From contig DASUNQ010000108.1 of NCBI GenBank assembly GCA_036277075.1, forward strand, positions 1-49,325: a DNA stretch of 49,325 nucleotides. Reading direction: 5' to 3'. Of the stretch, positions 4,186-40,050 are shown in pieces; positions within the stretch are counted from its first letter, which is position 1, and each line of letters begins with the position of its first letter. Origin of the DNA: Thermoanaerobaculia bacterium. GTDB taxonomy: Bacteria > Acidobacteriota > Thermoanaerobaculia > Multivoradales > UBA5704. Position numbers and translations under genes: made by a program. The notes under the pieces were generated by a model, which was not told the DNA's origin, searched no databases, and saw nothing but the letters and a program-made list of their open reading frames with translations.

Positions 4186-4204
4186 GCTGCTAGGGTTCTA
4201 TGAC

Positions 4205-4800: not shown

Positions 4801-4819
4801 TTGTTGCGGTACCTTTCTG
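4799..4819 (+). other. attL junction: core GA (4799-4800) plus island arm TTGTTG-CGGTACCTTTCTG
   Basis: Defined by the break in the host gene. The arm is the near-perfect inverted partner of 39166-39178. Confidence 0.7.
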
Positions 4820-5003
4820 CCGGATCGCGCTGCGAGCCTCCAGACCTAAGCGGCCCGGCTACCCGTCTTCGCCAGGGACGATCGGGGAGCACCTCAAGCG
4901 GCACCGACTGGACCTTGGCCTACGGCAAGCGGAGGTTGCCAGGAGGCTTGGCGTCAAGATTGGGACGCTCAGACTCTGGGAGGGTGGGTGGAACCGCGTC
5001 TCA

Positions 5004-18170: not shown

Positions 18171-18186
18171 CCTGGGAGAGGAAGTT

Positions 18187-20001
18187 ATGCAGCGAAGCCG
18201 ATCGCAAGTCATCTTCCGCCACCTACCCGGGGCGGTCTTTCACCACGACGAAGGACCCATCGTTCGAACGACGTTCGTTGACGGAACGCGGCTCGGTCCC
18301 GTTATCAACAAGGCTGTTCTTCTCGAGGAGGTCGATCGTCACTTGGAGCAATGGCCTGACGAACACCTGGCTGGGATCGTCCGACCATCTCGTGTTTCGG
18401 AGCGAGACTTCGTCGTCATAGAGCCAGAAGCTGTCTACTTCGAGGTCTGGCCGCTCCTTCTGCATTGTGAGGGGCGGTGCGGGCGGGCACGCCGCTACTT
18501 CCGACCTAGCCAACTCAGTGCCGATGTCGACGCTAACGGCCGTATTTCCTGCCACCATTGTGGGGGTCGTATGCGTCAACTCCGGTACTACGCGTGCCAT
18601 CAATGCGGGCGGTCGGAGCCCATGTTCACGCCGAAGTGCGACGCTTGCAATAGCTATGAGGACGTGGTCCTCGAGGACACTGGTTCATTCGAGACGTCGT
18701 ACTGGCGCTGCATACGGCACGGTTACCTCCGCGGCACTCGGTTCACGCCGTGCGACTGTGGAGAATTTCTGGCGGAGGGAAGCCATGGCCCCGCTTTTAT
18801 GCGGGCCTTTACGACACGTGACGCCCGGACGTACTATCCACACACAGTTACGTTTCTCAATCCGAAGTCGGCTGTTTACGACCGATTCCAAGTGCATCCG
18901 GCGCGCGCTCGTGTGGCACTGGCCTCCTATCTGGGCGAGGTGTCGAGTCTTCAGCGCGGCATGGAGCAAATCGATGGCGGGCGCGCCGGTAGTCGCTACA
19001 CGCCAGATGAATGGCAGCAGGCATGTAAGACTATTTACGCCGGGCTATCGCCAGAGGATCTGGAGATCATCCGTGATCGACGCGGCCCTGTGATAACAGG
19101 AGTCTTCGGCGCGCCCGATCCGGACCTTGCGCAGCGGCGCCTTGCCGAGACACGCGCGGTGCTAGAGCGCGCGGCTGTACACGATCAAGATCTTGTCGCC
19201 CGACGCACGCTGGAAGACGCCCGACAGGAGGCGGCGAGCCGGGGTGTCGTTTCGGAGGAGGGCCGGCTTTCCGAGACAGAGCGCTACGCCCGGCGCATGG
19301 GTATCGCCGCGGTCTCAGTGACTACGGCCTTTCCGGTCGCTCTTGCGGCCTACGGCTATACGAGAGTCCGTCGGGAGCCGGGCGAGTCTATCCTGCAGGG
19401 GTTTGATCGCCGACGTTACGGGAACCAGTATCCGATTTTCGCGGTGCCGACTGATACCGAAGCGCTGATCGTGACGCTTGCCGCCCGTGATGTGCTGGGC
19501 TGGCTTCGGGACGAGCACGATGGCGCGGGACCGGTACCAGTCGACGAGAAGGATGCCCGTCTCCAGGTCTTCTCGCTATTCGCAGCGGGTGCACAGGAGA
19601 TTGAGCCGGTAGGTACTCTAGTCCACTCCGTCTCGCACGCGCTGCTCCGATCGCTGGCCGACGGTAGAAGTGGCTTCGGCGAATCATCTCTCGCCGAGTG
19701 GCTCTCCCCCGCAACACTTACCTTCGGGATCTACGTCGCGACATTCCATTCGCACACGCTGGGTGCGCTCTGGACAGTGCTCCACCACTCCTGTCAGGAG
19801 TGGCTTGCTGGTGCTATCGATGGCGTGTGGACGTGCGACAACGACCCTCTCTGTCATCAGCGGCAGCCCCGAGCGTGTGAAAGATGCCTTTATCTCACCT
19901 TCGGTTGCCCGGACTTCAATGAAGACCTCTCGCGGACCGCGCCGATGAGCTTCTGGCGCGGTACAGCGAGGCGAGCGGATGCTTCGTCGGCGACGACCTG
20001 A
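18187..20001 (+). CDS. drmB: DUF1998 zinc-binding protein, DrmB-like
   Basis: ORF 18106..20001. ATG 18187 follows GGGAGAGGAAG and lies 17 nt after the helicase stop. Cys clusters CHHCGGRMRQLRYYACHQCG and the C-terminal CDNDPLCHQRQPRACERCLYLTFGCPDFNEDLSR match the DUF1998 signature. Confidence 0.8.
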   Translation: MQRSRSQVIFRHLPGAVFHHDEGPIVRTTFVDGTRLGPVINKAVLLEEVDRHLEQWPDEHLAGIVRPSRVSERDFVVIEPEAVYFEVWPLLLHCEGRCGRARRYFRPSQLSADVDANGRISCHHCGGRMRQLRYYACHQCGRSEPMFTPKCDACNSYEDVVLEDTGSFETSYWRCIRHGYLRGTRFTPCDCGEFLAEGSHGPAFMRAFTTRDARTYYPHTVTFLNPKSAVYDRFQVHPARARVALASYLGEVSSLQRGMEQIDGGRAGSRYTPDEWQQACKTIYAGLSPEDLEIIRDRRGPVITGVFGAPDPDLAQRRLAETRAVLERAAVHDQDLVARRTLEDARQEAASRGVVSEEGRLSETERYARRMGIAAVSVTTAFPVALAAYGYTRVRREPGESILQGFDRRRYGNQYPIFAVPTDTEALIVTLAARDVLGWLRDEHDGAGPVPVDEKDARLQVFSLFAAGAQEIEPVGTLVHSVSHALLRSLADGRSGFGESSLAEWLSPATLTFGIYVATFHSHTLGALWTVLHHSCQEWLAGAIDGVWTCDNDPLCHQRQPRACERCLYLTFGCPDFNEDLSRTAPMSFWRGTARRADASSATT

Positions 20002-20010
20002 CTCTTGGCC

Positions 20011-21969
20011 ATGCGAGACCGTCGCCGGATCTGCACTATGAGCCAGACTCCGGAACCTTTGACCGCCGGCGTGATTTTGGGTCTGGGCAGTCCGCTTCGG
20101 CACCTAGATATCTCGGCAGTTTCCGCGGCAGCAACGAATGAGGTTGGGCGACGGGAGCGACATCTGCCGACCGTGTCGGTCTTCCGTTGGTGGGCACGAC
20201 GCACATCCGCTGTCTCGGGTGCGGTACTCGATGCGGTCGCTCGCGACCTCGGCCCGCGCCTCCGGGTCGCCGATCCGTTCGCCGGCGGCGGGACCGTAGC
20301 GCTGCAAGCCCTTCTTCGCGGTCATTGGGTTCACGCGCAGGACATCGATCCGTGGGCGGCGGAAGGAATCGCGGCGGCGCTCAGTCTTCCGGCTCCGGAG
20401 GCGATCCATGCTGCGGGTGACCGCTTACGCTCGGCCGTCGCGGGGCTTCTCGATCGCGCCTATGGCACTTCCTTTGACGGCGGCGCTAGCGCATGGATTA
20501 CCCATACCCTCCGTGTAGCCGTGGGAACGTGCCCTCGATGCGACAACGAAGCTCGGCTCTTCCCATATGCGACCCTTTCCCGATTCCAACGGGTGGAAGC
20601 GGTGGGCAAGGACGAGCGCGCGTGGCTAGCGTGCCGGTACGGGCACGTTCACGGGGGTGTCCTGAATCAGCTTCGCAGCTGTCCCGAATGCAGTGACCGG
20701 GTTGATCCGGCCGCTGTCTACACTTCTGGCCGCCAGTTTGCGTGTCACGCTTGCGGTCAGACGGCGACACTCGCCTTATGGGCCCGAGACGGCTTTCGAT
20801 GGGAAGTGGTCTTGGTCGAGAGGGCGGATGGGGTCCGGCGCGAGATCTCAATTCCGCGAAGCGACGAGATCCAACGCGCCGAGTCCGACTGGATGCCCTG
20901 TCGCGAACTTCCACAAATTGAAGCGGGAAGAGAAAGCACCGTTCTGCTCCGACATGGCTTCCGGCACTGGCACGACCTCTATCCACGGCGCCAGCGGGTC
21001 ATCCTTGAGGCGGTCTTCGCTGCGATCCCAGAGGCTGCTGCGGGAGATCCGACCTTAGTGCGCCTACTCCATATAGTCGTTGCTGGTGCCGCGGAGATGG
21101 CCGGTCACATGTCCCGATGGGATCGGCGATACCTCAAAGCATATGAAGCGATGGCTGGGCACAGGTTTAATCTGACTACGCTCGCGGCCGAGCCGAACGT
21201 CTGGGGCGTTGGACGGCGTGGGCGAGGGAGCATCTCACTCCGTATCGCAGCGGCGAAGCGAGCTGCTGAATGGCTCACTGCCTCTCGGTCGCCGATCGCC
21301 CTAGCGGGCCCCTTCAGCACGAGCGCCGATCGAGCCGCTGCCGACGCGGTCGATGCAGTAGTTGTCCATGGTTCCTCCGAGCGTATGCCGCTTCTCGATG
21401 GCTCGGTCGACCTTATCTGGACAGATCCGCCCTACCACGACGACGTGCAGTATCACGATCTCTCAGCACTATTCCGTGTGTGGCTTGGCCTCTGCAGCGT
21501 GGATAGCGAGGCCTCGGCCGTGGCGTCCGGTCCAACGGATAAGCGGTACGTCCAGGTGCTACGGCGCGTCTTCGCTGAGTGCCGACGGGTGCTCGCACCC
21601 CACGGTCGCCTCCTGCTCACCTACGCCAACAGGGACTCAACCGCCTGGATCGCGCTTTACGAAGCACTTCGTGATGCCGGGTTCCGTGCTCAGGGCTATG
21701 AGATCGTTCGTTCAGATGCGGAAACCGACTTCACAAAACGCCGCGGTCGGACCTGCAGCATGGATCTTGTTCTCGATCTGGTGCCCGCAGGCAACAACTC
21801 CGCTCAGCTCATCCACCGGCCCGCGTGCTCGCCAGCGTCTGGGGAAGGCGCTTTTCTAGCTGTTAGGGGTGAAGTGGCTCTTACGGCCATCTCCGACGTA
21901 CCGCCCGTGGGCTGGCGCGAGCGGCTACGAAGTGAGCAGACCGACCACTGGTCTCAGAAACCGCGATGA
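20011..21969 (+). CDS. N6-adenine DNA methyltransferase with Zn-ribbon inserts (COG1743/DUF1156-like)
   Basis: FRWWARRTS (DUF1156-like WWARR), AdoMet motif VADPFAGGGT, Zn ribbons CPRCDN...CPECSD...CHACG, catalytic LIWTDPPYHDD. Start ambiguous (TTG 20005, ATG 20011, ATG 20038). Confidence 0.8.
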   Translation: MRDRRRICTMSQTPEPLTAGVILGLGSPLRHLDISAVSAAATNEVGRRERHLPTVSVFRWWARRTSAVSGAVLDAVARDLGPRLRVADPFAGGGTVALQALLRGHWVHAQDIDPWAAEGIAAALSLPAPEAIHAAGDRLRSAVAGLLDRAYGTSFDGGASAWITHTLRVAVGTCPRCDNEARLFPYATLSRFQRVEAVGKDERAWLACRYGHVHGGVLNQLRSCPECSDRVDPAAVYTSGRQFACHACGQTATLALWARDGFRWEVVLVERADGVRREISIPRSDEIQRAESDWMPCRELPQIEAGRESTVLLRHGFRHWHDLYPRRQRVILEAVFAAIPEAAAGDPTLVRLLHIVVAGAAEMAGHMSRWDRRYLKAYEAMAGHRFNLTTLAAEPNVWGVGRRGRGSISLRIAAAKRAAEWLTASRSPIALAGPFSTSADRAAADAVDAVVVHGSSERMPLLDGSVDLIWTDPPYHDDVQYHDLSALFRVWLGLCSVDSEASAVASGPTDKRYVQVLRRVFAECRRVLAPHGRLLLTYANRDSTAWIALYEALRDAGFRAQGYEIVRSDAETDFTKRRGRTCSMDLVLDLVPAGNNSAQLIHRPACSPASGEGAFLAVRGEVALTAISDVPPVGWRERLRSEQTDHWSQKPR

Positions 21970-22060: not shown

Positions 22061-23650
22061 CTACGACTGGTCACTGGTATCCTGGCGTAGAGCGAATGCA
22101 GAATTCTGCTTGATCCAGCTTTCGATCTCTTCAATGATGTGTCTCAACGCAGATTCTCTTTGCGAACTTGCCGACTGCGGCAGGTTTGTACCGCTTCGAC
22201 CTTCGGCCCGTTGAAGGTCACTAGGAGTATTTTTCGCATAGTCAGTGAGCGATACAAAGGGACGAAACAGCTCAACAGAGAGGTTTTTGCCGGTCACGAT
22301 ACGGTTCGACGTCGCAAGCTGGGCAAGTGCGCGTTTGTGGTCGGCTGTCGCCGTCTCGTAGCTTAACCAGGCCGCGTTTGCCAGTTCGACCACTTCTCGC
22401 ACCTCTTCCAGCTTCTTTTCGGCCTCGCTGCTTGGAAGTGCGAGCTTCTCTTCAAGGTCTCGCCGTTCAAGGTATAGGCTCGCCTTGCTCTTTTCGAGGA
22501 GTTCCTTCTCCAGCATGCCGTCGAGGTACGCGTCGACGAGGCGGTCAAGCAGGGATTGGATCTGTCCGAGCCGCAGGCGCCGCGCCTCTTGCTGCTCTTC
22601 CCATTCGCTGAGGAACCCCGCGCGCCGCTCTTCCATTCGCTGGAACAGGTACGCTAGTTGGTCGCTTGAGAGCATGAGGCGCCGAAGCTCTCGCTGGATA
22701 GTCTCATCCACGGCTTCTTCGCGCACGCACTTCGTCGGACATCCCTGAGTGTGGCAGCGGTAGTAGACGTGTCCCTTCTGGAGCTCGCCGCGGAGTAGCC
22801 TGCCGCAGTGGCCGCAGGAGAGCAAGCGCCGGAAGACGAATTCGTGTCGGATCACTTTCCGGTGCGTTCGCCCCTGGAGGCGATCCTGCACACGTCGAAA
22901 CAGAGCGACCGGAATGAGCGGCCGGTGTATGCCCGGGAACGTCTCGCCCGTCTTGCGCAAGCTGATGAGGCCGCAGTAGAAGGAATTGTTGAGGATAGTC
23001 GAGAGACCGTTGCGCGTCACCTTGTGTCGGTTGCGGTTCCGCAAGCCTCGCCGGTACATCTCGTCGGCGAGCGCCAGGAGGCTGAATTGGCCGGAGTCGT
23101 ACAGCTCGAATGTCTTTCGCACGTGCGGGGCGGTGTTTGCATCAGGCACCTTCGGCTTGCCCTTCCCGCAGTCGAGGTAGCCGAGCGGCGCCTGGAGCGG
23201 GTAGAGCCCCTGCTTCAGGCGTCCGTAGAAACCCTTGAGCGTTTCCTCCCGCAGGTTGCGGATGAAGTCCGCGGCGACAATGGCCTGAATGTCGGCAGCG
23301 AGCCGGCCGCCACGAGTATGGAGGTCAAGCGACTCGTTCACGAAGTGGACCGCAATCCCAGCGTCGATGAGCTCGCCGAGGTCTGCCCAGTCGCGGAGAT
23401 TCCTGGCGCTCCGGTCGATCTTGTGGATGACGAGCCCCTGTGCTTTACCCTGGCGCAACAGCCGGAGCATCTTGGTGAACTTTGGTCGGCCTCGCTTTGC
23501 GGCCGTCTTTGTCTCCTCGAACCACTCGATGATGGAGAGCCCATGGGTCCCGGCGTAGCGCGCGATGGCATCGTGCTGCTCCTCAGGCGACACGCCCTCT
23601 TCCTTCTGCTTGGGCGTTGAGACACGTATGTATGCGAAGCAACGCGTCAT
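22061..23650 (-). CDS. Large serine recombinase (second copy, divergent from the terminal one)
   Basis: N-terminal resolvase motif AYIRVSTPKQ, IHKIDRSARN, recombinase domain, zinc ribbon CGHCGRLLRGELQKGHVYYRCHTQGC, then a coiled-coil segment. Confidence 0.9.
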   Translation of the reverse strand: MTRCFAYIRVSTPKQKEEGVSPEEQHDAIARYAGTHGLSIIEWFEETKTAAKRGRPKFTKMLRLLRQGKAQGLVIHKIDRSARNLRDWADLGELIDAGIAVHFVNESLDLHTRGGRLAADIQAIVAADFIRNLREETLKGFYGRLKQGLYPLQAPLGYLDCGKGKPKVPDANTAPHVRKTFELYDSGQFSLLALADEMYRRGLRNRNRHKVTRNGLSTILNNSFYCGLISLRKTGETFPGIHRPLIPVALFRRVQDRLQGRTHRKVIRHEFVFRRLLSCGHCGRLLRGELQKGHVYYRCHTQGCPTKCVREEAVDETIQRELRRLMLSSDQLAYLFQRMEERRAGFLSEWEEQQEARRLRLGQIQSLLDRLVDAYLDGMLEKELLEKSKASLYLERRDLEEKLALPSSEAEKKLEEVREVVELANAAWLSYETATADHKRALAQLATSNRIVTGKNLSVELFRPFVSLTDYAKNTPSDLQRAEGRSGTNLPQSASSQRESALRHIIEEIESWIKQNSAFALRQDTSDQS

Positions 23651-26945: not shown

Positions 26946-27077
26946 CGGAAAGTAGCCTGCGATCCCTAGTGCCTTGGAGAGGGCACGTAAAGCTTCCCCG
27001 GCACAACCGAGGGAGCTTTGGCGCGCGTCAGGAAACGCCGCCTTTGCGGCAATCAGGAGTACGCGCACGATGGGCGA

Positions 27078-28277
27078 ATGCACTCCGATGATCGCATCAC
27101 CTACTTCGCCCGCACCAACCACCGCAACACGCGGACGCTTTTTGGCATTCGCAGGCGCGATCGGCTCATGCACCTCTACACCATCGGCCGGACCGGCACC
27201 GGCAAGTCCACACTCCTGAAGACCCTCGTCCTCCAGGACCTTGAGGCCGGAGAAGGCCTGGCGCTCTTCGATCCGCACGGGGATCTGGTCGAGGAGGTGG
27301 TGAAGCTCGTACCCGCCGCCCGGCGGGCTGACGTCCTGTACCTCAATGTCCCGGACAGCCGCTGCCGCTTCTCCTTCAACCCCTTCGCCGGCATCCCGGC
27401 CGGCAAGCGGGCGCTCGCGGCCGCCGGCATGGTCGAAGTCTTCAAGAAGCTCTGGCCGGACGATTGGGGACCGCGGCTTGAGCACCTGCTGCGCAACGTC
27501 GTCTTCACCCTCCTCGAGACGCCGGGAGCAAGCCTGGCCGACATCCCGCGACTCCTGGCCGACCGGGACTACCGACGAGGAGTCGTCGCCGGCGTCACCA
27601 ACGAAGAAGTCCGCGCCTTCTGGCGTGACGAGTACGAACGCTACAGCCCCGGTATGCGGGGAGTGGTGGTAGCGCCCCTGCAGAACAAGGTGGGAGCGTT
27701 CCTGACGGACCCGCGGCTGCGGGAGATCCTCGGAGCCGAGCAGTCCAGCTTCGATCTGCGGCAGGTCATGGATAAGGGACGGATACTCCTGGTGAACCTC
27801 GCCCGCGGGAGAATCGGCGAGGGGCCGGCGGCGCTCCTGGGATCGCTCTTGGTCTCCTGCCTGAGCCTCTCGGCTTTCGGGAGAGCAGAGCGGCCGCAGG
27901 AAGGCCGCCGCGACTTCTACGTCTACCTCGACGAGTTCCACACCTTCGCCACCCTCACCTTGGCGACCATGCTCTCCGAGCTGCGGAAGTACCGCGTAGG
28001 ACTTGTACTCGCCCACCAGTATCTCTCCCAGCTTGAGACGGAGGTTCGGGATGCAGTCTTTGGGAACGCAGGGACATTCATTGTCTTTCGGGTCGGAGCC
28101 CTTGACGCGCCAATCGCTGCCCGCGAGCTCGCCCCGACGTTCGCGCCAGAGGACTTGATCTCCCTGCCCAACTACAACATCTACCTGCGGCTGATGATCC
28201 GCGGTCAGCCAAGCAAGCCGTTCAGCGCGACAACGGAGAGATGGGAACATCTTGACGGCTACGCGCACCTCTGCTAA
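27078..28277 (+). CDS. TraD/VirD4-like DNA-translocase ATPase (T4SS-DNA_transf family), core only
   Basis: ITYFARTNHRNTRTLFGIRRRDRLMHLYTIGRTGTGKSTL (Walker A), FYVYLDEFH (Walker B), LVLAHQYLSQL. Paralogous to the central part of 34544..37561. Confidence 0.8.
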   Translation: MHSDDRITYFARTNHRNTRTLFGIRRRDRLMHLYTIGRTGTGKSTLLKTLVLQDLEAGEGLALFDPHGDLVEEVVKLVPAARRADVLYLNVPDSRCRFSFNPFAGIPAGKRALAAAGMVEVFKKLWPDDWGPRLEHLLRNVVFTLLETPGASLADIPRLLADRDYRRGVVAGVTNEEVRAFWRDEYERYSPGMRGVVVAPLQNKVGAFLTDPRLREILGAEQSSFDLRQVMDKGRILLVNLARGRIGEGPAALLGSLLVSCLSLSAFGRAERPQEGRRDFYVYLDEFHTFATLTLATMLSELRKYRVGLVLAHQYLSQLETEVRDAVFGNAGTFIVFRVGALDAPIAARELAPTFAPEDLISLPNYNIYLRLMIRGQPSKPFSATTERWEHLDGYAHLC

Positions 28278-28452
28278 TCTCCGCCGTTGAGCTAATGCTG
28301 ATACGCATGCTTGGATCGCTATATAGGTATCCCACGCCTCCTTCTCCCAGTCCTGCGCCGCTCCTGATATGCGCCCCCCAACAGCGTTCTAGGGCGCCTC
28401 GACCGATATAACCGCCCACGATTTGACCATTCAACCCGCAACGAGAGAACGA

Positions 28453-30444
28453 ATGGCAACGACTCCTCTGCAAGTCGTACGCCTCACACAGCTCGACGCA
28501 GTAAACGTCCGCCAGTTCGGTGGCAAGGTCTCGAACCTTGCCCAGCTCACTATGGCGGGTGTCGACGTTCCTCCAGGTGTGGCACTCGGCAAGGAAGTGC
28601 TTGCCCATTTTCTCAGCGAAAATGGAATCAATTTGCCGGCCCTCGAACAACTTCATAATCGAGGGATGATTTTCCTGGAGTCCGCGCTTCAAGAAGCTCA
28701 GGTTTGGCAAGCAAGAATCGTGGATACAATTCATAAGGGGGATCTACCGAGCGCGATTTCGGATGCTTTGCTTGAGAACCTCGACAATCCCGACCGAGTG
28801 TTTGCCGTTCGGTCCTCTTGTGTAGTGGAAGATTCAGCATCTACGTCCTTTGCAGGACAGTATGTAACTGTGCTCGCTGTTTCTGGACGCGAAGCAATCC
28901 TGGATGCAATCCGTTCATGTTGGGCATCTCAGTATGACGGACGAGTACTTACTTATGCTATTAGTCGGCGTGGCATGCCTGTTCTAGTGCCTTCAATGGC
29001 AGTGCTTGTCCAGGAAATGTTAACCCCCAGCTTTGCTGGCGTTTGCTTCACCGAGGGTCCGACACCTCGTACGAAAGAGTTGATGATCATTGAAAGTGTG
29101 GTGGGGGTCGGCGAGGCTCTTGTCAGCGGAGAGCGTACGCCCGCACATTTCGAGCTAAGGCAGGACGGCGAACTGCACCGAGCGATGGTTCCTGCAGATG
29201 GAAAGACTCCTTCCGAAGCACAAATCGCGAGTATCGCCGCGGAGGCGCGGAAGATCGCCGGCTTCTTCGGCCGCCCCCAAGACGTCGAGTGGGCGCTTGT
29301 GGACGACAGACTCTTCATACTTCAGGCAAGGCCGATTACCGTTCTCGGAGGCGAGCGGGCTGCGACAACTCTAACTTTGCTAGGGGGCAGGACGGAAGAA
29401 GTTGGGCGACCTGCGACTGTCGAGACTAGTTCAGCGGTACTACGAGATGATCTCCATGAATGGCTGATATCACGGGTTGATCCACTGGTCTACCGGGGCT
29501 GTTCGTACCTCCTATCCAAGCAGCAACAGGATGGTTCCTGGAAGATTGAGGGCCATCCCGAATGGGATTGCGTTGCCACGGCATTGATGGTGAAGCTGCT
29601 TATCGATGGTGGTGTTCCAGGTTCGCTGGCTTGGTCGCTTCCAAGGGGGGATCACGAATCACCCGTGCTTGGGGTACAGGCTGCTGTGGCCTGGCTGGCG
29701 AGAAATGTTGGGGATGACGGAGGTTGGGGCACCGATTTGTGGGATTCATGCCAGGTATTGCGCGCGTTAGTTCGATCGAGCTTTAGCTTAGATGAGCCGA
29801 TTTTAGCCAAGGCTTTCTCTCACGTTATGGATCAATTAGCGAGGGGCGTGACCAGTGTTGCAGATCAGGAGTGGGCTGGTGCGGGCTTCGTCGCCGTCGC
29901 ATTGCAGCTACTTTCCGAAAGTGGTAGATCTCCTGCGGTCAAAGATCTCGTAACGCTTCTTCTTGATACTCAGACTGCCGATGGAGACTTTCCGGCGCTC
30001 CATGCCAGTGGTGATCGTGTTCCTTCCGAGTGGCATACAGCGCAGGTCATAACTAGTCTTATGCAGTGCTGTGCTGACGATGCACACGCGGCGACTGCTG
30101 CAAGCAAAGCACTGGAATGGCTTCTTTCCCGGCAACACTCAGACGGCTCCTGGGGGGTGAGCGCTGGACCATATGCCCACTATAATACGTTTTTCACCTC
30201 CTATGCTGTGATAGCTCTTTCTAGTGCGGGCTATTCACCCGCTACTGAGCAACTCGCGAGGGCGGTTCGGTGGTTACGCGGAAAGCAGGTGGCCTCTGGA
30301 GCATTCGGCGACATCGCTTCCTCGCTGATGGCAATGACAGCATTTCAAGTGGTGTATGGGCCATTGTTTGCTCTCGAACTCCCTTTACCCCTTTTTCTGC
30401 GAGTCCAACATTGTCTCAGCACCATCGACCAACTAGCACACTAG
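28453..30444 (+). CDS. Fusion protein: PPDK_N-type ATP-grasp (PEP synthase / rifampicin-phosphotransferase-like) domain plus alpha/alpha-toroid prenyltransferase/squalene-cyclase-like repeat domain
   Basis: N-terminal blocks FAVRSSCVVEDSASTSFAGQY, MAVLVQEML, GVGEALVSGERTP, DVEWALVDDRLFILQARPIT. C-terminal repeats SKQQQDGSWK, GDDGGWG, TQTADGDF, RQHSDGSWG, KQVASGAFG. ATG 28453 follows GAGAGAA. Confidence 0.8.
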   Translation: MATTPLQVVRLTQLDAVNVRQFGGKVSNLAQLTMAGVDVPPGVALGKEVLAHFLSENGINLPALEQLHNRGMIFLESALQEAQVWQARIVDTIHKGDLPSAISDALLENLDNPDRVFAVRSSCVVEDSASTSFAGQYVTVLAVSGREAILDAIRSCWASQYDGRVLTYAISRRGMPVLVPSMAVLVQEMLTPSFAGVCFTEGPTPRTKELMIIESVVGVGEALVSGERTPAHFELRQDGELHRAMVPADGKTPSEAQIASIAAEARKIAGFFGRPQDVEWALVDDRLFILQARPITVLGGERAATTLTLLGGRTEEVGRPATVETSSAVLRDDLHEWLISRVDPLVYRGCSYLLSKQQQDGSWKIEGHPEWDCVATALMVKLLIDGGVPGSLAWSLPRGDHESPVLGVQAAVAWLARNVGDDGGWGTDLWDSCQVLRALVRSSFSLDEPILAKAFSHVMDQLARGVTSVADQEWAGAGFVAVALQLLSESGRSPAVKDLVTLLLDTQTADGDFPALHASGDRVPSEWHTAQVITSLMQCCADDAHAATAASKALEWLLSRQHSDGSWGVSAGPYAHYNTFFTSYAVIALSSAGYSPATEQLARAVRWLRGKQVASGAFGDIASSLMAMTAFQVVYGPLFALELPLPLFLRVQHCLSTIDQLAH

Positions 30445-33240: not shown

Positions 33241-33851
33241 GCCGTATACGAGTGAGCGGTCAGCCGCCCATTATTGCGCTTGTGGGCCTGACGACAGCTG
33301 GCAAAACCACGGTTTCGCAACTTCTCGAAGCGCGGAGCCTGGCACGTCGGCTGATCATGCTGACAACAAGGCCGCCGCGGTTGGATGATCCTACAGGTTG
33401 GTTCGATTACGTGACAGAGATTGTTCCACGGACTGGTGATATTGTCTTTGAGGGGTGGGGACAGTCCCGGTACTGTGTCCGTGGGGAGTCGATACGGCGC
33501 CTGAGGGAGCTCGGCAACTGGCCGATTCTAGACCTCGGTGACGTTGAGCCCGCGTTGTGGGTTAAAGAACGTTACCATCCTACTGTTATCGTAATGGTTG
33601 CGCGTGAGGTTACGGCTGAGAGAGTGCAAACTGTCTGCAAGGCGCGCGGGATGGCGAGAAATGCGATTGAGGAGCGAGTCCGTGGACTGGAGGCTGATCG
33701 ACATGATCTCGCGGCGCATGTTTGGGCCGTCGACTTTGTGCTAGAGAATAGCGGGTCAGTGGAGGAGACGATGCGGAATATCGACGCACTCGTACAGATG
33801 ATCTCACAATCGATGGCGGAGAGTGATGAAGTAGGACGGACCAGGGCATGA
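33225..33851 (+). CDS. Guanylate-kinase-like P-loop kinase
   Basis: Walker A GLTTAGKTT and a TTRPPR...G..Y segment as in the guanylate kinase/PhnN family. Overlaps both neighbours. Confidence 0.65.
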   Translation: MSRLLSRIRVSGQPPIIALVGLTTAGKTTVSQLLEARSLARRLIMLTTRPPRLDDPTGWFDYVTEIVPRTGDIVFEGWGQSRYCVRGESIRRLRELGNWPILDLGDVEPALWVKERYHPTVIVMVAREVTAERVQTVCKARGMARNAIEERVRGLEADRHDLAAHVWAVDFVLENSGSVEETMRNIDALVQMISQSMAESDEVGRTRA

Positions 33852-34531
33852 TGCAACTACGCGGGTCGGTAATCAGTCACTGGCATATTCTGTTAGAAGA
33901 ATTCTCCACTTCAACTCAAGAGTTCTACAAGGCGGTTGAGCAGGCTGTACGCGAGCGCAATCTGCCGGAGGTCGAGCTCTCCCGTGTCCTCTTCAAAGAG
34001 GGCGGGATTGGAACAGCACAGCGCGAGTACCTCCGCGTCCAGCGAAAGCGCGTTGCCTTCGACATCTGCTCGGCGCCGTACGGCAACGGCCACTTCTTCT
34101 CCTGGTGGCTCGCCAAGATCCCTGCAAAGTACGGGCTCCTCATCGTGGCAGCGGCCATCCTCGTCGGGCTGCCGGTGTGGGCGATCTTCGCGACCATCCT
34201 CACGAAGATCTTTGAGGGCGCCTGCTTCAGCTTCGTTCTCGGCCCGCTCATGTTCTTGCTCGGCATTCCCGTAATCCTTCTCGGGCTTGGCTCCCTGGTC
34301 GAGCGCGGCATGATCGGGGACGAGGAGTGGGTACTCTCTATCCCGTGGGTTGGCTACCTCTACGCGGTTGTCTTCAACCCCACGACCTACTACCGCCAGG
34401 ACACGGCCATGATGTTCCGCGACTCGCTCCGATCAGCGGTGAACGAAGTCATCAACGGCCTGCGGACGGAGAAGGGACTGCGGGGCCTCGGCGAGCAGGA
34501 ACTGGCGCCCGAGGGTGAAGGGACGGCATAG
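33848..34531 (+). CDS. Integral membrane protein
   Basis: ATGA overlap with the kinase stop. Hydrophobic helices LLIVAAAILVGLPVWAIFATILT and FSFVLGPLMFLLGIPVILLGLGSLV. Confidence 0.6.
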   Translation: MMQLRGSVISHWHILLEEFSTSTQEFYKAVEQAVRERNLPEVELSRVLFKEGGIGTAQREYLRVQRKRVAFDICSAPYGNGHFFSWWLAKIPAKYGLLIVAAAILVGLPVWAIFATILTKIFEGACFSFVLGPLMFLLGIPVILLGLGSLVERGMIGDEEWVLSIPWVGYLYAVVFNPTTYYRQDTAMMFRDSLRSAVNEVINGLRTEKGLRGLGEQELAPEGEGTA

Positions 34532-34543
34532 CATTCGGCATCA

Positions 34544-37500
34544 ATGGAGAGCCTGGTAGAGAAGCGCGGCCGCCACTTCTATGCCTGGGAGCGGCGGGGC
34601 CGCGGGTGGCAGAGCTATCCGTATCCCGTCCCGCTCGCGCCGCCGTTCAGGCCATTCCGGTATCTCCGCGAGACGACCGTCGCTGCCGTTGACGACGGCA
34701 GGCACCCCACTCCGTTCTCGGCAATCCTCGAACGCTGGTTCGGCGGCCGACAGGAGCCGCCGCCTGCTCCGGTGGAGGAGGGAGAGCCGGAGCCCGAGCC
34801 GCGCCAGGACGACAGCGAGCTCATCGAGGTACAGCTCCTCCCGCCCGAGGATCTCTCCGTCACTCCCGCCCTGAGCCAGGCCTGGCTCAGGAGCCTCGCG
34901 TCGCTTCGGGCGCCGGCTTCGTTTGAGCTGGTGGCGACCGGCGGCACGGTTGCAGTGCTTCTCTCCTGCCGCAGTCAGGACGCGCCGCTCCCCTTCGCGC
35001 AGCTTCGGGCGTTCTTTCCACAGGTCGAGGTGCGGGAGGGCCAGGACCTTCTCCTGTCCGCGTGGGAGCAAGTCGCGGAGGGGACCTTCTCCGTTCTGGA
35101 GTTCGGCCTGGCCCACGAGTTCATGCTCCCGCTCGCACAAGGCAAGAGCTTCTCGCCCGACCCCCTCACCTCGATCGTGGCCGCGCTCGCCGAAGCCAAG
35201 GCCGGCGAGTTTGCGCTCCTGCAGGTTCTCTTCGAGAGAGTGTCGGCGCCGTGGCCCGAGAGCATCGTGCGGTCGGTGCAGACGCCTTCGGGCGAGCCGT
35301 TCTTTGCCGACGCCCCGGAGGTCACAAGTCTGGCCCGCGAGAAGGCATCAGCACCGCTCTTCGCTGTGGCGGTTCGCGCAATGGCGCTGGCTCCGAGCGG
35401 CGAGCGCCTGTGGACGCTCCTTCGCGGCATCGGCGGTGCGCTCTCCTCAGCCACACAGGGCGGCAACGAGCTGGTGCCTCTTGGCCAGGGCGATCTTGAT
35501 GACCTTCTCGGCGACGTGCTGTTTCGCACGACGCACCGCTCCGGCTGTCTTCTATCGCTTCCCGAACTTTCCACACTCGTACATCTGCCTTCCGCGTCGG
35601 TCCAGGCCATCGTCCGGGAGACCGGCCGCACCAAGGAAGTACCACCCGAAGCCCGCGACTCCGGCGTTGTCCTTGGGTATGGCGTCCACCAGGGCAAGCG
35701 AACCGAAGCCCGGCTCTCCGACGACGCGCGCATGCGCCACGTGCACGTCATTGGCGCACCAGGCACCGGCAAGTCAACGCTCCTGGTGTCCCTGATCCTT
35801 CAGGACATTGCGGCAGGCAACGGCGTTGGCGTCCTCGATCCGCACGGGGACCTCGTTGATGAGGTGCTCGCTCGGCTGCCGGAGGAGCGGGCACAGGACG
35901 TCATCCTTTTTGACCCCGCCGATCCCGAGTACGTCGTCGGCTGGAACATGCTCTCCGCCAGCTCCGAGGCGGAGAAGGAGATGCTCGCCTCAGACCTGGT
36001 GGCCGTCTTCCGCCGGCTCTCCACCTCCTGGGGCGACCAGATGACGGCGGTTCTCGCCAACGCGATCGGCGCCTTCCTGGAGTCACGCGATGGCGGGACG
36101 CTCCTCGACCTCCGGCGCTTCCTGGTTGATCCCGGCTTCCGCAAGCGCTTCCTCGAGACGGTGCCTGACGCCTTGGCGCGGGAGTTCTGGACGACGCACT
36201 TCCCGATGCTCAAAGGCTCGCCGCAGGGGCCGATCCTTACCAGGCTCGACAGCTTGCTGCGGGGGCGCCTGGTGCGCGGGGTGGTGACAGCGACCGAGCG
36301 GCCGCTCGACTTCCGCCGCGTGGTTGACGACGGACGGATCTTCCTGGGCAAGCTCTCGCAGGGCGCGATCGGCGAGGAGAACGCCTCCCTCCTCGGGTCG
36401 CTCCTGGTCTCCAAGTTCCACCAGGTCTCGCTCCTGCGGCAGGACCAGGCCGAAGCTGAGCGTCGCCCGTTCTTCCTCTACGTTGACGAGTTCCATGGCG
36501 TTGCCACGCCCTCGATGGCCGCGCTGTTCTCCGGCGCCCGGAAGTACCGGCTCTCGGTCACCGTGGCCCACCAGGACCTCTACCAGCTCCACAGCCGAGT
36601 GCCGGACGTCGAGCGGGCGGTGCTCGCCAACGCCTACACCCGAGTGTGCTTCCGCCTCGGAGATGAAGACGCGCGTGCACTCGCCCACGGGTTCTCCTTC
36701 TTCACGGCTGACGACCTGGGGAACCTCGGCACGGGAGAAGCGGTCTGCCGAGTCGGCAGGAAGGAGCAGGACTTCAACCTGGAGACAATCAGACCGGAGC
36801 CGTTGACTGCGGCGGCCGCGCGCGAGCAGCGGCGGGCGATGCGGATGGCTTCGCTCAAGAAGTGGGGTGTTCTGCGACCTGCGGAGGTCGAGCCGCCGCC
36901 GACTGTTGCCGATCAAGCGCGGGAGCCACGGCCTCCGCAGGAAGCTCGGACCCCTGAACGTCAGGGGGTGGAGCCTCCGGCGACCCCCAGACCGGCACGG
37001 GAGGCAAAGCCACCCGCGCCCCAAGTGCCGAGCGCTGCCGCACCGCATGCCGAGCCTCGGCGTCTGGGCAAAGGCGGCGCCGAACACACGTACCTGCAGG
37101 AGCTCATCAGTAGGTGGGCGGTGGAACGGGGTTTCCGTGCAGCGGTGGAGGAGCAGATCGCCGGCGGCCGCGAGAGCGTTGACTTGGCCCTCCACCGCGG
37201 CCAGTTCTCAGTCGCCTGCGAGATCAGTGTCACGACACCTCTGGATTACGAGGTCGGAAACGTCGAGAAGTGCCTGGCGGCCGGTTTCCCGATGGTAGCG
37301 GTTGTGTCGCTCAAGAAGGCGCGGCTTGAAAAGCTAGACAAGCTCCTGACCCGGACCTTGTCCGCGGACCAGCGCAGTCGCGTGCACGTCTTTACACCGG
37401 AGGAGCTTCTTGCCTGGCTGGCGGGTCAGCCGGCAGCGGAGGAGACGAGCACAGTTGCCGGGTACAAGGTCAAGGTTCGCTACCGGGAGGCGCCGGAGGC

Positions 37501-37561
37501 TCGGAAGCGGGTCGCCGAAATCCTGGCGCGCAGCATGAGGCGGCTCAAGAAGGACGAGTAG
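34544..37561 (+). CDS. TraD/VirD4-like ATPase with a large N-terminal domain, Pro-rich linker and C-terminal PD-(D/E)xK-like nuclease domain
   Basis: Walker A VIGAPGTGKSTL, Walker B FFLYVDEFH, VTVAHQDLYQL. The C-terminal GKGGAEHTYLQ...ESVDLAL...VACEISV pattern is suggestive of a restriction-endonuclease-like fold. Confidence 0.8.
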   Translation: MESLVEKRGRHFYAWERRGRGWQSYPYPVPLAPPFRPFRYLRETTVAAVDDGRHPTPFSAILERWFGGRQEPPPAPVEEGEPEPEPRQDDSELIEVQLLPPEDLSVTPALSQAWLRSLASLRAPASFELVATGGTVAVLLSCRSQDAPLPFAQLRAFFPQVEVREGQDLLLSAWEQVAEGTFSVLEFGLAHEFMLPLAQGKSFSPDPLTSIVAALAEAKAGEFALLQVLFERVSAPWPESIVRSVQTPSGEPFFADAPEVTSLAREKASAPLFAVAVRAMALAPSGERLWTLLRGIGGALSSATQGGNELVPLGQGDLDDLLGDVLFRTTHRSGCLLSLPELSTLVHLPSASVQAIVRETGRTKEVPPEARDSGVVLGYGVHQGKRTEARLSDDARMRHVHVIGAPGTGKSTLLVSLILQDIAAGNGVGVLDPHGDLVDEVLARLPEERAQDVILFDPADPEYVVGWNMLSASSEAEKEMLASDLVAVFRRLSTSWGDQMTAVLANAIGAFLESRDGGTLLDLRRFLVDPGFRKRFLETVPDALAREFWTTHFPMLKGSPQGPILTRLDSLLRGRLVRGVVTATERPLDFRRVVDDGRIFLGKLSQGAIGEENASLLGSLLVSKFHQVSLLRQDQAEAERRPFFLYVDEFHGVATPSMAALFSGARKYRLSVTVAHQDLYQLHSRVPDVERAVLANAYTRVCFRLGDEDARALAHGFSFFTADDLGNLGTGEAVCRVGRKEQDFNLETIRPEPLTAAAAREQRRAMRMASLKKWGVLRPAEVEPPPTVADQAREPRPPQEARTPERQGVEPPATPRPAREAKPPAPQVPSAAAPHAEPRRLGKGGAEHTYLQELISRWAVERGFRAAVEEQIAGGRESVDLALHRGQFSVACEISVTTPLDYEVGNVEKCLAAGFPMVAVVSLKKARLEKLDKLLTRTLSADQRSRVHVFTPEELLAWLAGQPAAEETSTVAGYKVKVRYREAPEARKRVAEILARSMRRLKKDE

Positions 37562-37694
37562 AGAGCGGGTAGCCTCCCCGGCAGATTCCTCCGCCTTGAG
37601 CGCCTGTCACCTGGCGAGTACTGTGGCTGCAGAGTCGTTCTTCGCATCCCACCAACAACCCGCCGTGGTATACGGCAGCTACAGAGAGGAGCCA

Positions 37695-39389
37695 ATGCCA
37701 CAACACCACCCTGACAGGACCGGAGACAAGCGAGTCGGCATCTGGATTCGGGTCTCAACCGAGGACCAGGCCAGGGGCGAAAGCCCCGAGCACCACGAGG
37801 CGCGAGCGCGGATGTACGCCGAGGTCAAGGGCTGGACGGTGGTCACCGTCTACCACCTCGAAGCCGTCAGCGGGAAGTCCGTCTTAGGACATCCCGAGGC
37901 TCAGCGCATGCTCGCCGACCTGCGCTCCCGCCACATCTCCGGCCTCATTTTCTCGAAGCTCGCCAGGCTGGCCCGCAACACCCGCGAACTCCTGGACATC
38001 TCGGATCTCTTCCAAGAGCATCGCGCGGACCTCATCTCGCTCCAGGAGTCGATCGACACCTCGACTCCCGCGGGTCGCTTCTTCTACACCATGCTCGGAG
38101 CGATGGCGCAGTGGGAGAGGGAGGAGACCGCCGACCGAGTGGCCGCCTCCGTGCCGATCCGGGCCAAGCTCGGGAAACCCTTGGGCGGAAAGACACCCTA
38201 CGGGTACCACTGGCAAGCCGGCAAACTCGTCCCTCACCCGCAAGAGGTGCCGATCCGCAAGCTTATGTACGAGCTCTTCCTCACCCATCGCAGGGTCAAG
38301 ACCGTCGCCCGGCTCCTCAATGAGGCTGGATACCGGACTAAGACCGGAGGACTCTTCGGACCCACGACCGTCAAGCGCATCCTGCGCGACCCCACGGCCA
38401 AGGGCCAGCGCCGCGCGAACTTCACCAGGAACCTGGGCGGCAACCGCCGGCGCTGGGTCCTCAAGCCGCAGGAGGACTGGGTGTGGTCCGAGGTCGAGCC
38501 GATCGTCTCCGAGGAGATCTGGGAGCGGGCCAACGCCCTGCTGGAAGGGCGCAAAGAGAAGCGCCCGGGGCGGAGGCCGGTCCACCTCTTCACGGGAGTG
38601 GCCTTCTGCCATTGCGGCGCCAAGCTCTACGTGCCCTCCAACACCCCGAAGTGGGTCTGCTACAAGTGCCGCAACAAGATCCCGATCACGGACCTCGACC
38701 GGGTCTTCGAGGAGCAGCTCAAGGACTTCTTCCTCTCCGAGGAGAAGATCGCGGAGGCGCTTGCCGAGTCTGACCGGACGCTCGTAGAGAAGCGCGAGCT
38801 TCTCTCGGTCCTCACGGCAGAGCGGGAGCGACTTTCCGGAGAGATGGAGAAGGTCTACCGCCTCTACATGAGCGACGTGCTCTCGCCGGAAGGCTTCGGC
38901 GAGCGGTACCGCCCTCTGGAAGAGCGGGTGCGACAGCTTGGGGAGGAGATCCCTCGCCTTCAAGGGGAGATCGACTTCCTGACCATCGAGCACCTCTCAA
39001 GCGAGGAGGTCGTCTCCCAAGCCAGAAGCCTCTACGGCCGCTGGCAGGAGCTTCCCTTCGAGGAGCGGCGGGCGATCGTCGAGACCATCGTCGAACGGAT
39101 CACCGTCAGGAGGGACGAGGTCGAAATCGACCTCGCCTACTTTCCCTCTCCGGGAGAAGTAATAGCAGAAAGGGACCGTTCGCGGACGAGTACAGCGACA
39201 CCCTCGGCTTCTATGTCCGCGGGCCGCACCGGACGGTCCTCTACGTCCCGGACACCGACTCCTGGCGCGCCTGGCCGCGGCCGCTGCCGGAGCTGCTGGC
39301 GGGCGTGGACGAGGCGCTCCTCGACGGGACCTTCTACTCGCTCGACGAGCTGCCCGGACGAGACGTCGCCTCGATCGGCCATCCGCTGA
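37695..39389 (+). CDS. Large serine recombinase (island integrase); native sequence to 39186, then read-through into host DNA
   Basis: GAGAGGAG RBS. IWIRVSTEDQ catalytic motif, FSKLARLARN, zinc ribbon CHCGAKLYVPSNTPKWVCYKCRNK, coiled coil, ITVRRDEVEIDLAY. After 39186 the frame continues about 67 codons out of frame across the host gene fragment. Confidence 0.9.
   Translation: MPQHHPDRTGDKRVGIWIRVSTEDQARGESPEHHEARARMYAEVKGWTVVTVYHLEAVSGKSVLGHPEAQRMLADLRSRHISGLIFSKLARLARNTRELLDISDLFQEHRADLISLQESIDTSTPAGRFFYTMLGAMAQWEREETADRVAASVPIRAKLGKPLGGKTPYGYHWQAGKLVPHPQEVPIRKLMYELFLTHRRVKTVARLLNEAGYRTKTGGLFGPTTVKRILRDPTAKGQRRANFTRNLGGNRRRWVLKPQEDWVWSEVEPIVSEEIWERANALLEGRKEKRPGRRPVHLFTGVAFCHCGAKLYVPSNTPKWVCYKCRNKIPITDLDRVFEEQLKDFFLSEEKIAEALAESDRTLVEKRELLSVLTAERERLSGEMEKVYRLYMSDVLSPEGFGERYRPLEERVRQLGEEIPRLQGEIDFLTIEHLSSEEVVSQARSLYGRWQELPFEERRAIVETIVERITVRRDEVEIDLAYFPSPGEVIAERDRSRTSTATPSASMSAGRTGRSSTSRTPTPGAPGRGRCRSCWRAWTRRSSTGPSTRSTSCPDETSPRSAIR
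39166..39186 (+). other. attR junction: island arm CAGAAAGGGACCG-TTCGCG plus core GA (39185-39186)
   Basis: The host gene resumes at 39187 (CGAGTACAGCGAC = ...EYSD). The arm is the inverted partner of 4807-4819 (12/13 complementary). Confidence 0.7.
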
Positions 39390-39562
39390 TGACCGAGACG
39401 ATGGAGCTGCTGGGGCCGCTGGTGAAGGACGGAACGCTGCGGGTCGCCTTCACCCATCTCAACCACTCGAACCCGGCGCTGCAACCCGAGAGCGCGGCGC
39501 GCAAGGCCATCGGGACACACGGCTTCCGCGTCCTCGCGGAGGGGGAGGAGCTTTCCCTATGA
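39187..39562 (+). pseudogene. 3' part of the interrupted PqqB-like MBL-fold hydrolase gene
   Basis: Translation (D)[29 protein letters not shown]...[11 protein letters not shown]...RVLAEGEELSL is collinear with the C-terminus of the paralogue at 5282..6238. 596 nt + 376 nt = 972 nt, in frame. Confidence 0.85.
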
Positions 39563-39586
39563 GCCAAACCTTCATGCGGTAGGGCC

Positions 39587-39835
39587 AGGAACAGTGCCCG
39601 GACGCTCCGGGAACAGTTCCCCACGGTTAGGAACAGTGCCCGGACGGTCCGGGAACAGTTCCCAACGGCCAGGAACAGTGCCCGGACGCTCCGGGAGCAG
39701 TTCCCAACGGCCAGGAACAATGCCCGGACGCTCCGGGAACAGTTCCTAACGGCCAGAAACAGTGCCCGGACGCTCCGGGAACAGTTCCCAGCGGCTGGGA
39801 ACAGTGCCCGGATGCTCCGGGAGCAGTTCCGAGCC
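39587..39835 (+). repeat. Six direct copies of a 42-bp palindromic unit
   Basis: AGGAACAGTGCCCGGACGCTCCGGGAACAGTTCCCAACGGCC-type units start at 39587, 39629, 39671, 39713, 39755 and 39797. Each contains GGAACAGTGCCCGG-ACGCT-CCGGGAACAGTTCC. Confidence 0.9.
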
Positions 39836-40050
39836 GTCCGGGCACAGTTCCTGAGCGCGGGGAACTCTTCCCGATCCGTCCGGGCACTGTTCCTGAGGGC
39901 TGGGAACTCTTCCCGGTCCGTCCGGGCACTGTTCCTGAGGGCTGGGAACTCTTCCCGGTCCGTCCGGGCACAGTTCCTGAGGGCTGGGAACTCTTCCCGG
40001 TCCGTCCGGGCACAGTTCCCGAGAGCTGGGAACTCTTCCCGGTCCGTCCC
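39836..40050 (-). repeat. Five (plus one truncated) copies of the same 42-bp unit in inverted orientation
   Basis: GTCCGGGCAC(T/A)GTTCCTGAGGGCTGGGAACTCTTCCCGGTCC units start at 39836, 39878, 39920, 39962 and 40004, with a truncated copy at 40046. GTCCGGGCACTGTTCC is the exact reverse complement of GGAACAGTGCCCGGAC in the left array. Confidence 0.9.

Follow-up and report, generated by a model that had tools for sequence, protein, structure and literature searches.

A genomic island whose large serine recombinase carries attP within its own gene and probably sheds a helix-turn-helix module on integration

The window analysed here is a stretch of 49,325 nucleotides of Thermoanaerobaculia DNA (assembly GCA_036277075.1, contig DASUNQ010000108.1). 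It contains an integrated element of 34,386 bp, with the gene for a large serine recombinase (LSR) at its right end. We put a probability of roughly 0.78 on the reading that this element is a self-splitting island: its phage-type attachment site, attP, lies in the linker of its own recombinase gene, and a helix-turn-helix (HTH) module is detached from the enzyme on integration and rejoined to it in frame on excision. The broader proposal, that the embedded attP is an integration-state switch by which integration reversibly strips the HTH module across a large multi-phylum family, is tentative and at present somewhat doubtful. The features on which the argument turns are as follows.

4801-39186, no strand: integrated element, 34,386 bp, delimited by the GC step, the empty site and gene content
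4205-4800, + strand: 5' fragment of the host PqqB-like metallo-beta-lactamase (MBL)-fold gene (PF12706), forming the left half of attB
4799-4800, + strand: attL copy of the crossover dinucleotide GA
4800-5246, + strand: detached 3' end of the recombinase gene, 148 codons and TGA (5244-5246)
4807-4820, + strand: P' arm of attP, CGGTACCTTTCTGC, encoding part of the linker ('..VPFC')
5282-6238, + strand: intact element-borne paralogue of the disrupted MBL gene, 318 amino acids (aa), 64% identity over 292 aa
37695-39186, + strand: LSR core kept on integration, 497 codons from the likely ATG and reaching into the linker, identified by PF00239, PF07508, AlphaFold2 (AF2) and Foldseek
39165-39178, + strand: P arm of attP, GCAGAAAGGGACCG, encoding the linker 'AERD..'
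39185-39186, + strand: attR copy of the crossover dinucleotide GA
39187-39389, + strand: host-derived tail of the integrated open reading frame (ORF), 67 codons including the straddling codon, ending in TGA (39387-39389)
39187-39562, + strand: 3' fragment of the host MBL-fold gene, forming the right half of attB

Insertion boundaries and the reconstructed attP

The junctions at 4801 and 39186 are real insertion boundaries, because four lines of evidence coincide there. The GC content steps from 72-78% in the flanks to 53-69% within the element. Deletion of 4801-39186 restores an uninterrupted ORF of 323 aa, PqqB-like, with a Lactamase_B_2 domain (PF12706) and a signal-peptide-like N-terminus. 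The empty site is present in two other soil metagenomes, X4 and X7, each in a contig of 758 nt in which 4549-4800 passes straight into 39187 onward (joint 4800/39187); with 2 and 8 mismatches to the window flanks, these contigs come from close relatives of the host, and in X4, 3 nt (GGA) are common to both alignments. Finally, Logan contigs assembled independently from the source run, X1 (14,053 and 8,830 nt), bridge attL and attR without a mismatch.

When the two ends of the element, 39166-39186 (CAGAAAGGGACCGTTCGCGGA) and 4801-4819 (TTGTTGCGGTACCTTTCTG), are joined, the sequence CAGAAAGGGACCG TTCGCG GA TTGTTG CGGTACCTTTCTG is obtained. Its arms are complementary at 12/13 positions and each lies 6 nt from the central GA; they lengthen to 14 nt, with 13/14 complementary, when 39165-39178 and 4807-4820 are taken. 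A symmetric arm this good arose in 6 of 200,000 random joins of window sequence, a significance of about 3e-5. The core shared by attL and attR in the window is GGA (4798-4800), which alone cannot separate a GA from a GG crossover. This ambiguity is settled by a sister element, described below, in which the shared core is exactly GA. The attP is thus shown to be an imperfect palindrome of about 42 bp, centred on GA and lying inside the recombinase ORF. It has the properties expected of LSR attachment sites: a length of about 40-50 bp, dyad symmetry and a non-palindromic 2-bp crossover common to attP and attB. A TAATAG at 39160-39165, just before the P arm, was considered as a true stop preceded by a frameshift, and was rejected because it is out of frame (+1 relative to the recombinase) and homologues read through these codons.

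An earlier note on this DNA, made from its letters without database searches, had proposed the symmetric attP with 12/13 arms and a 2-bp GA crossover, its position within the recombinase reading frame, and the origin of the last 67 or so codons in host DNA read out of frame. All of this holds: the sequences are as it quoted them, the sister core is exactly GA, the ORF crosses attR, and the host-derived codons occupy 39187-39389. It also held that another position of attP in homologous elements, or an integrase stop ahead of the junction, would count against it; in the elements compared, attP falls at the same codon, and the reading frame of intact homologues continues across the site.

The recombinase in its two states

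The recombinase ORF occupies 37596-39389 and crosses attR. It opens with a TTG at 37596, but its likely start is the ATG at 37695, giving a protein of 564 aa, the length of a database protein (P0001) that is 98% identical. At attR, the A of the crossover GA opens a codon which straddles the junction and reads ATT (Ile) in the excised state and ACG (Thr) in the integrated state. In the circle, the ORF continues for 148 codons through 4800-5243 to give 645 aa from the same ATG. These codons, in frame with the LSR only after circularisation, specify the remainder of the linker followed by two Xre-type HTH domains (about 4881-5243), matched by HTH_31 and HTH_3 in Pfam with E values of 1e-15 to 1e-17. 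In the integrated state, the first HTH is left without an ATG, GTG or TTG start; the first such codon is the GTG at 5004, which yields the second HTH only.

Integration therefore changes the C-terminus in two ways, by loss and by gain. The loss of the conserved 148-aa HTH module is the biologically relevant change. The gained 67-aa tail, read in a frame other than that of the host gene, is incidental, an accident of the high-GC host; relatives gain 7-8 aa. The expectation of the earlier note that the enzyme would differ at its C-terminus between the two states was thus right as far as it went, but the excised form ends in a conserved two-HTH module and not just in a different tail.

By sequence, fold and attachment site, the enzyme meets the description of a large serine recombinase. 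The catalytic domain matches PF00239 at 6.5e-31, with the catalytic Ser in a RVSTEDQ motif that is invariant in the family alignment, and matches the TP901-1 integrase at 1.8e-19 with a TM-score of 0.86 normalised to the target. After helix E comes the recombinase domain (PF07508 at 5.4e-20; residues 171-287 in the AF2 model). The four cysteines of a zinc ribbon, C305, C307, C322 and C325, do not vary across the family alignment, and the predicted zinc ribbon and coiled coil run from strands at 303-330 through a pair of long helices (349-452) back into strands at 466-480. The model thus has the canonical LSR domain order up to residue 480. The top Foldseek matches are the SPbeta, phiC31, Bxb1 and LI integrases, with full-length alignments to the first three at E values of 1e-14 to 2e-20. 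The tandem HTH is modelled confidently at residues 525-643 (predicted local distance difference test score, pLDDT, 80-94) and resembles 434 Cro and repressor. Between these two parts lies the segment of lowest confidence, residues 483-504 (pLDDT 33-43), which contains the junction at 497/498. The attP is therefore shown, as far as the predicted structure goes, to fall in a putatively disordered linker between the last zinc-ribbon strands and the HTH pair.

Homologues, related elements and the spread of the family

The reconstructed 645-aa protein was used as a query and the best 120 matches were taken. In 71 of them, one and the same ORF holds the recombinase domains and an Xre-type HTH Pfam domain (from precomputed annotation), with a length of 620-710 aa in nearly every case; the remaining 49 are without an Xre-type HTH Pfam domain. 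The full-length LSR-HTH proteins align colinearly across the reconstructed junction (marked here by a slash), with AERDRSR/IVAVPFCRIALRA...GEHLKRHRLDLGL in the window against ASGQRNF IPALPFCHISLKG...GDHLRKRRLDLKL in a homologue, or, in a longer reading, ...AYFPSPGEVIAERDRSR/IVAVPFCRIALRASRPKRPGYPSSPGTIGEHLKRHRLDLGL against ...CYLPSPSELMASGQRNF IPALPFCHISLKGQRPLPQAYPRELKTLGDHLRKRRLDLKL in a typical intact protein. In the short homologues, homology ends exactly at the junction residue and is followed by short unrelated tails, the sequence of which follows the host. The closest relatives of the window LSR (P0002-P0008, 74-79% identity) end in tails like TSTATPW, an out-of-frame translation of the same MBL target, while a larger group terminates in (D/G)S(S/W)RRPA and a stop. 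The tail is 8 aa long in two relatives with the same target gene and 7 aa in most relatives that target comM.

Both parts of the gene were found together in other elements. On the 217-kb JGI contig Ga0376649_0000033, a sister element, inserted in the same MBL-type gene, has about 28.6 kb between its LSR core (L003) and its detached tail (L005). Its attR reads ...GGCAGAAAGGTGCCGCAGTCC GA CGAGTA... and its attL ...CCGCACCGG GA TCTGTGCGGCACCTTTCTGCC..., so that the two share GA alone at the junction. Its reconstructed attP has perfect 17-nt arms around GTCC-GA-TCTG, and the parts join in frame as AERCRSP/ICAAPFCRITL...GEHLRKRRMDLG. In L038, from a Dehalococcoidia metagenome-assembled genome (MAG), core and tail lie about 11 kb apart with a shared core of exactly CA and a symmetric attP; they join in frame as AEGQRNF/IPALPFCH, and the flanks rebuild the comM LVGAMNPC motif, as read from the DNA by eye. 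The paired ends of L027 have perfect 14-nt arms and also join in frame. This locus carries two detached HTH-tail copies (2-295 and 4005-4409), 4 kb apart and upstream of one LSR core, which together with the inner attL flank suggest that related elements occur together at this one site, as an array or a remnant. All four detached tails examined are open for 141-151 codons.

The site is also recognisable in genes that are not split. Among 16 intact single-ORF genes, nine have a strong inverted repeat at the same linker codons, with arms of 15-19 matching bases out of 17-21 and, in 8/9, a CA at the centre (for example TCACAAAAGGGCAACACA-ACGTCACCCC-TGCGTTGCCATTTTGTGA); four more have weaker repeats. 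Across the 51/87 loci that could be placed in register by motif search, a left half-site, GGCAAC(G/A)CAAC-n-TCA, is conserved in intact and split copies, third codon positions included. The conserved linker peptide ..QRNxIPALPFC.. therefore appears largely to reflect the DNA site, and the position of the junction in the lowest-confidence segment of the AF2 model agrees with this. No second copy of an attP arm, as might serve an inversion switch, was found within 10 kb either side of the intact genes, apart from each site's own opposite arm. The intact copy in Patescibacteria has genes of mobile-element type to either side: HTH regulators and an endonuclease upstream, and, downstream on the other strand, DUF8128/TrwB ATPases and ArdC.

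A scan of GTDB with one genome per species detected at least 574 loci of the family, in Acidobacteriota, Armatimonadota, Eisenbacteria, Chloroflexota, Planctomycetota, Bacteroidota, Proteobacteria, Patescibacteria and other phyla. Nearly all hosts are bacteria; archaeal-labelled MAGs account for 2 of the 80 best loci listed. Fourteen of these 80 are intact, including one (L051) with an in-frame stop in the tail. The other 66 have no adjacent tail; almost all lose homology at the junction, three running off the contig there. At least 40 of the best 80 have a comM-type tail, and beside such split copies lies a truncated Mg-chelatase/ComM gene on the opposite strand. In most split members (L007-L009 and most of L016-L089), the crossover falls in the codons of the conserved comM AMNPC motif, and the LSRs inserted in comM gain a 7-aa tail, (D/G)S(S/W)xxxA. 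The comM gene, encoding a Mg-chelatase-like protein, has been reported as the most frequent LSR target (PMC10083194). That study, by Durrant et al., filtered on 'LSR distance from attachment site' and makes no mention of overlap between the two (PMC10083194). Among 2.9 million IMG/VR contigs, only three loci of the family were found.

Mechanism and competing explanations

The self-splitting reading is as follows. Recombination between attP and attB cuts the LSR gene in two. The core, residues 1-497, with the catalytic domain, recombinase domain, zinc ribbon and coiled coil, stays at the right end by attR and acquires a host-encoded tail (67 aa here, 7-8 aa in relatives), while the last 148 codons with the HTH module come to lie 34 kb away by attL. 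Excision would rejoin both parts in frame to give the 645-aa LSR-HTH protein. The same design holds family-wide, with many single-ORF genes bearing the inverted repeat at these codons, and most chromosomal copies cut there, most of those in comM. Since the HTH module would be made only from the circular form, it could act as a read-out of the state of the element. It most likely would regulate episome-stage genes or the recombinase itself; alternatively, it might make the enzyme favour integration. The enzyme present at the time of excision would be the truncated core.

Several observations weigh against this reading. The excised circle, recognisable by its 39186-4801 attP joint, was absent from the contigs of source run X1 and two sister runs, and the X1 contigs at attL and attR represent the integrated form only; as the search used contigs, which drop rare variants, this absence is weak evidence. 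Some intact LSR-HTH genes are located deep within large contigs, of 347 kb and 594 kb, or within a 682-kb record titled 'chromosome'; these count against the reading because a gene that is always split on integration does not account for them. They may represent tandem arrays, episomes binned with chromosomes, or integration via another site. Intact copies which have the strong in-gene inverted repeat and lie inside long contigs are L010, L017, L032, L043 and L095-L098. At L027, the left flank does not continue comM, so the locus is no simple insertion; for this reason, and for the second tail copy upstream, L027 was rejected as a clean third element and is counted as paired ends only. The Pfam model Zn_ribbon_recom (PF13408) scores below threshold in the window protein, and it is from the invariant cysteines and the predicted fold that a zinc ribbon is assigned. 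The dN/dS of 0.21 between the window and the sister element, by which the detached tail appears to be under purifying selection, was obtained with dS near saturation. Lastly, the role given to the HTH module is a conjecture.

Against these points stand the difficulties of the competing explanations. Integration could be suicidal, the split inactivating the recombinase as in the archaeal SSV-type elements discussed below and leaving the island fixed and decaying. The split itself and the absence of an excised form from the contigs of the source and sister runs are in keeping with this, but the catalytic, DNA-binding and coiled-coil domains are all encoded upstream of the junction, core and tail are both intact in four elements, the tail appears to be selected, and the empty site in near-identical strains points to recent mobility; we consider such a fate unlikely. 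The suggestion that the foreign tail gained by the integrated enzyme is itself the meaningful difference between the two states draws on the existence of the 67-codon tail in the window. Given that the tail shrinks to 8 aa in the two same-target relatives and 7 aa in most comM relatives and follows the host, and that the conserved feature is the lost tandem HTH and not the gained tail, there is little to recommend it.

It is still less probable that the HTH ORF at the left end is an independent Xre-family regulator whose in-frame join to the recombinase is coincidental. Gene callers do annotate 'XRE-family regulators' of 113-136 aa at this place in relatives, starting from an internal Met, and in the window GTG 5004 could yield an 80-aa protein with the second HTH only. 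However, that internal Met is a Leu (CTG) in the window, where the first HTH has no canonical start codon. The join is in frame for each of four pairs of ends, which come from two or more different target genes; the single-ORF proteins that make up 71/120 of the best homologues are nearly all full-length and run colinearly across the junction; and the attP arms themselves encode the conserved linker peptide. An artefact, in the form of junctions made chimeric by assembly or of two genomes wrongly joined in the window, might be suspected from the soil metagenome source and the sharp GC step at both junctions. It is hardly credible in view of the mismatch-free Logan contigs of 14,053 and 8,830 nt spanning attL and attR, the same architecture on unrelated JGI, ENA and NCBI contigs, and a joined site significant at about 3e-5.

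The element is a genomic island, and the prophage that the earlier note took it for is not supported: virion and packaging families are lacking among the ORFs scanned, and members of the family hardly occur in viral contigs or phage records. In Pfam scans of 31 long ORFs of the window, 24 of them within the element, no virion, packaging or lysis families (capsid, terminase, tail) were found. PADLOC scans were made alongside, and further features of the island are listed here.

12354-21969, + strand: DISARM-like defence cluster (DrmE-like, DrmA, DrmB, DNA methyltransferase), cargo
33848-37561, + strand: conserved backbone immediately upstream of the LSR gene, encoding a 227-aa protein together with a 1005-aa ATPase of DUF87/TrwB type

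The intact MBL paralogue lies just inside attL, 36 nt after the HTH stop and in the orientation of the host gene. The frame of the host 5' fragment ends with the TAA at 4847-4849, 49 nt inside the element, so that the spare copy could be expressed by read-through from the host promoter; it is probably read in this way. The stretch of the replacement gene which corresponds to attB has diverged but retains GA. The sister element on Ga0376649_0000033 has the same arrangement of a replacement gene (L005, 10381-11337). Just downstream of the host MBL gene are two adjacent arrays of 42-nt tandem repeats (39583-39830 and 39834-40049; 5.9 and 5.1 copies, 90-95% matches). Their consensus units are apparently reverse complements, and the arrays at 39583-40049 may form a large inverted structure; metagenome contigs pile up on them to a depth of up to about 120.

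The DISARM-like cluster was called from DrmE_C, helicase and N6_N4_Mtase domains in Pfam and from PADLOC matches to DrmA (1e-106) and DrmB (5e-24); its methyltransferase has 654 aa. The 227-aa protein and the ATPase also stand upstream of the LSR in L003 and L004, and a related ATPase does so in L027. This LSR-adjacent ATPase is conserved in relatives at roughly 700-1,000 aa depending on the element, and is one of two TrwB_AAD_bind/DUF87/TraG-D_C ATPases in the island (27018-28277 and 34544-37561); the 1005-aa protein also matches PADLOC 'mad8' (7.6e-22). No relaxase or secretion-system genes were detected in the Pfam scans of the long ORFs. The ATPase suggests that the island is integrative and possibly mobilisable. 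At 22061-23650 on the - strand lies a second LSR, of 529 aa (Resolvase, Recombinase and Zn_ribbon_recom). It is unrelated to the junction LSR, the catalytic domains being 32% identical, and could be the sign of a nested element. In the sister element, too, another LSR is present, which starts at 20267 of L005, about 10 kb away from attL. Other ORFs encode Ldh_2, APH and GFO_IDH enzymes, a SymE-like protein and an SDR. At 28423-30444, a 673-aa protein fuses PPDK_N (the ATP-binding domain of pyruvate phosphate dikinase) to a squalene-hopene-cyclase/prenyltransferase alpha-alpha toroid of terpene-cyclase type; it is followed by an unannotated ORF of 365 aa and then by MBL-fold and SDR genes, and the region may be a small biosynthetic cassette.

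Relation to known systems and significance

The window enzyme has the domain order of canonical LSRs such as those of phiC31, Bxb1, TP901-1, A118/LI and SPbeta (SprA), in which the catalytic domain, helix E, the recombinase domain and a zinc ribbon with coiled coil follow one another. It also shares their short, imperfectly palindromic attachment sites, their non-palindromic 2-bp crossover and integration inside a protein-coding gene. Unlike them, it has attP inside the recombinase ORF instead of beside the gene, and carries an additional C-terminal pair of Xre-type HTH domains which integration removes. In protein-mode searches, neither PLSDB nor INPHARED yielded an LSR-HTH fusion of this family or a relative above 30% identity, the phage and plasmid LSRs there being less than 30% identical to the window LSR. 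The full-text literature searched, of incomplete coverage, gave no description of a serine recombinase whose ORF contains attP or whose HTH tail is detached by integration. Provisionally, the arrangement is new for serine recombinases.

The nearest precedents come from tyrosine recombinases. In the myxophage Mx8, attP lies inside the stretch that codes for the integrase (IntP/IntX), integration gives rise to a recombinant gene whose 3' end is new, and the prophage enzyme remains active with altered properties (PMC6070905). Here, too, attP is in the 3' part of the integrase gene and the integrated gene receives a new C-terminus. The Mx8 integrase, however, is a tyrosine recombinase of a single temperate phage and has its C-terminal sequences swapped, whereas the present enzyme is a serine recombinase of an element without phage structural genes, and a folded DNA-binding module is detached in a family of many phyla.

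In SSV-type integration (SSV1, pTN3 and pT26-2), attP is translated and the gene is separated into Int(N) and Int(C), which come to lie at opposite ends; both pieces are inactive pseudogenes, the gene is made whole again by excision or tandem insertion, and the peptide encoded by the attachment site co-varies with the choice of target (PMC7253208). This type has so far been restricted to archaea (PMC7253208). The window element resembles it in the position of attP inside the integrase ORF and in the movement of the gene parts to opposite ends. It differs in that the SSV-type enzymes are tyrosine recombinases while this one has the fold and motifs of a serine recombinase, and in that the cut follows all recombinase domains, so that the core should, judging by its sequence, stay functional.

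A third comparison is with mycobacteriophage BPs, in which, according to work attributed to Broussard et al. 2013, attP reportedly lies inside the coding sequence of an HTH protein whose C-termini differ between the integrated and free states. The split gene is said to be that of the repressor, which integration reportedly stabilises, and the integrase is said to be a separate tyrosine enzyme. The likeness is that an attP in the gene of an HTH protein forms a built-in sensor of the integration state; unlike in BPs, the HTH module of the window is fused to the recombinase and is removed by integration. Integration-dependent immunity is described for BPs and Brujita (PMC4557955). The recombinases of Mx8, the SSV-type elements and BPs are all tyrosine enzymes, and in none of these systems does an otherwise intact enzyme lose a folded DNA-binding module.

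The replacement gene also has parallels. Islands in tRNA genes are described as carrying a copy of the displaced gene end (PMC4383910), and some phages as carrying a tRNA gene which replaces the one they inactivate (PMC10865867). As in tRNA and tmRNA islands and in tRNA-dependent lysogeny, the element compensates for the damage to its target. It does so, in contrast to the tRNA and tmRNA islands, with a whole protein-coding paralogue (64% identical), placed for possible expression by read-through, and is a clear case of an island carrying a spare copy of the gene that it destroys.

Serine integrases are heavily mined for genome engineering, and the control of their directionality is an active structural question. 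A pipeline which takes the integrated ORF for the integrase would synthesise a truncated enzyme with a junk tail, missing the last 148 residues. The finding extends the 'attP inside integrase gene' arrangement from archaeal and one myxophage tyrosine recombinases to serine recombinases in many bacterial phyla, and raises the question of whether recombination-driven loss of a DNA-binding module alters directionality or gene expression. If the HTH module does set directionality or repress episome-stage genes, these elements would possess a self-contained control of integration and excision, encoded in the topology of the gene instead of, or besides, a separate directionality factor. They would then be the serine-recombinase equivalent of SSV, Mx8 and BPs in their logic, and self-limiting integrases could naturally be modelled on them.

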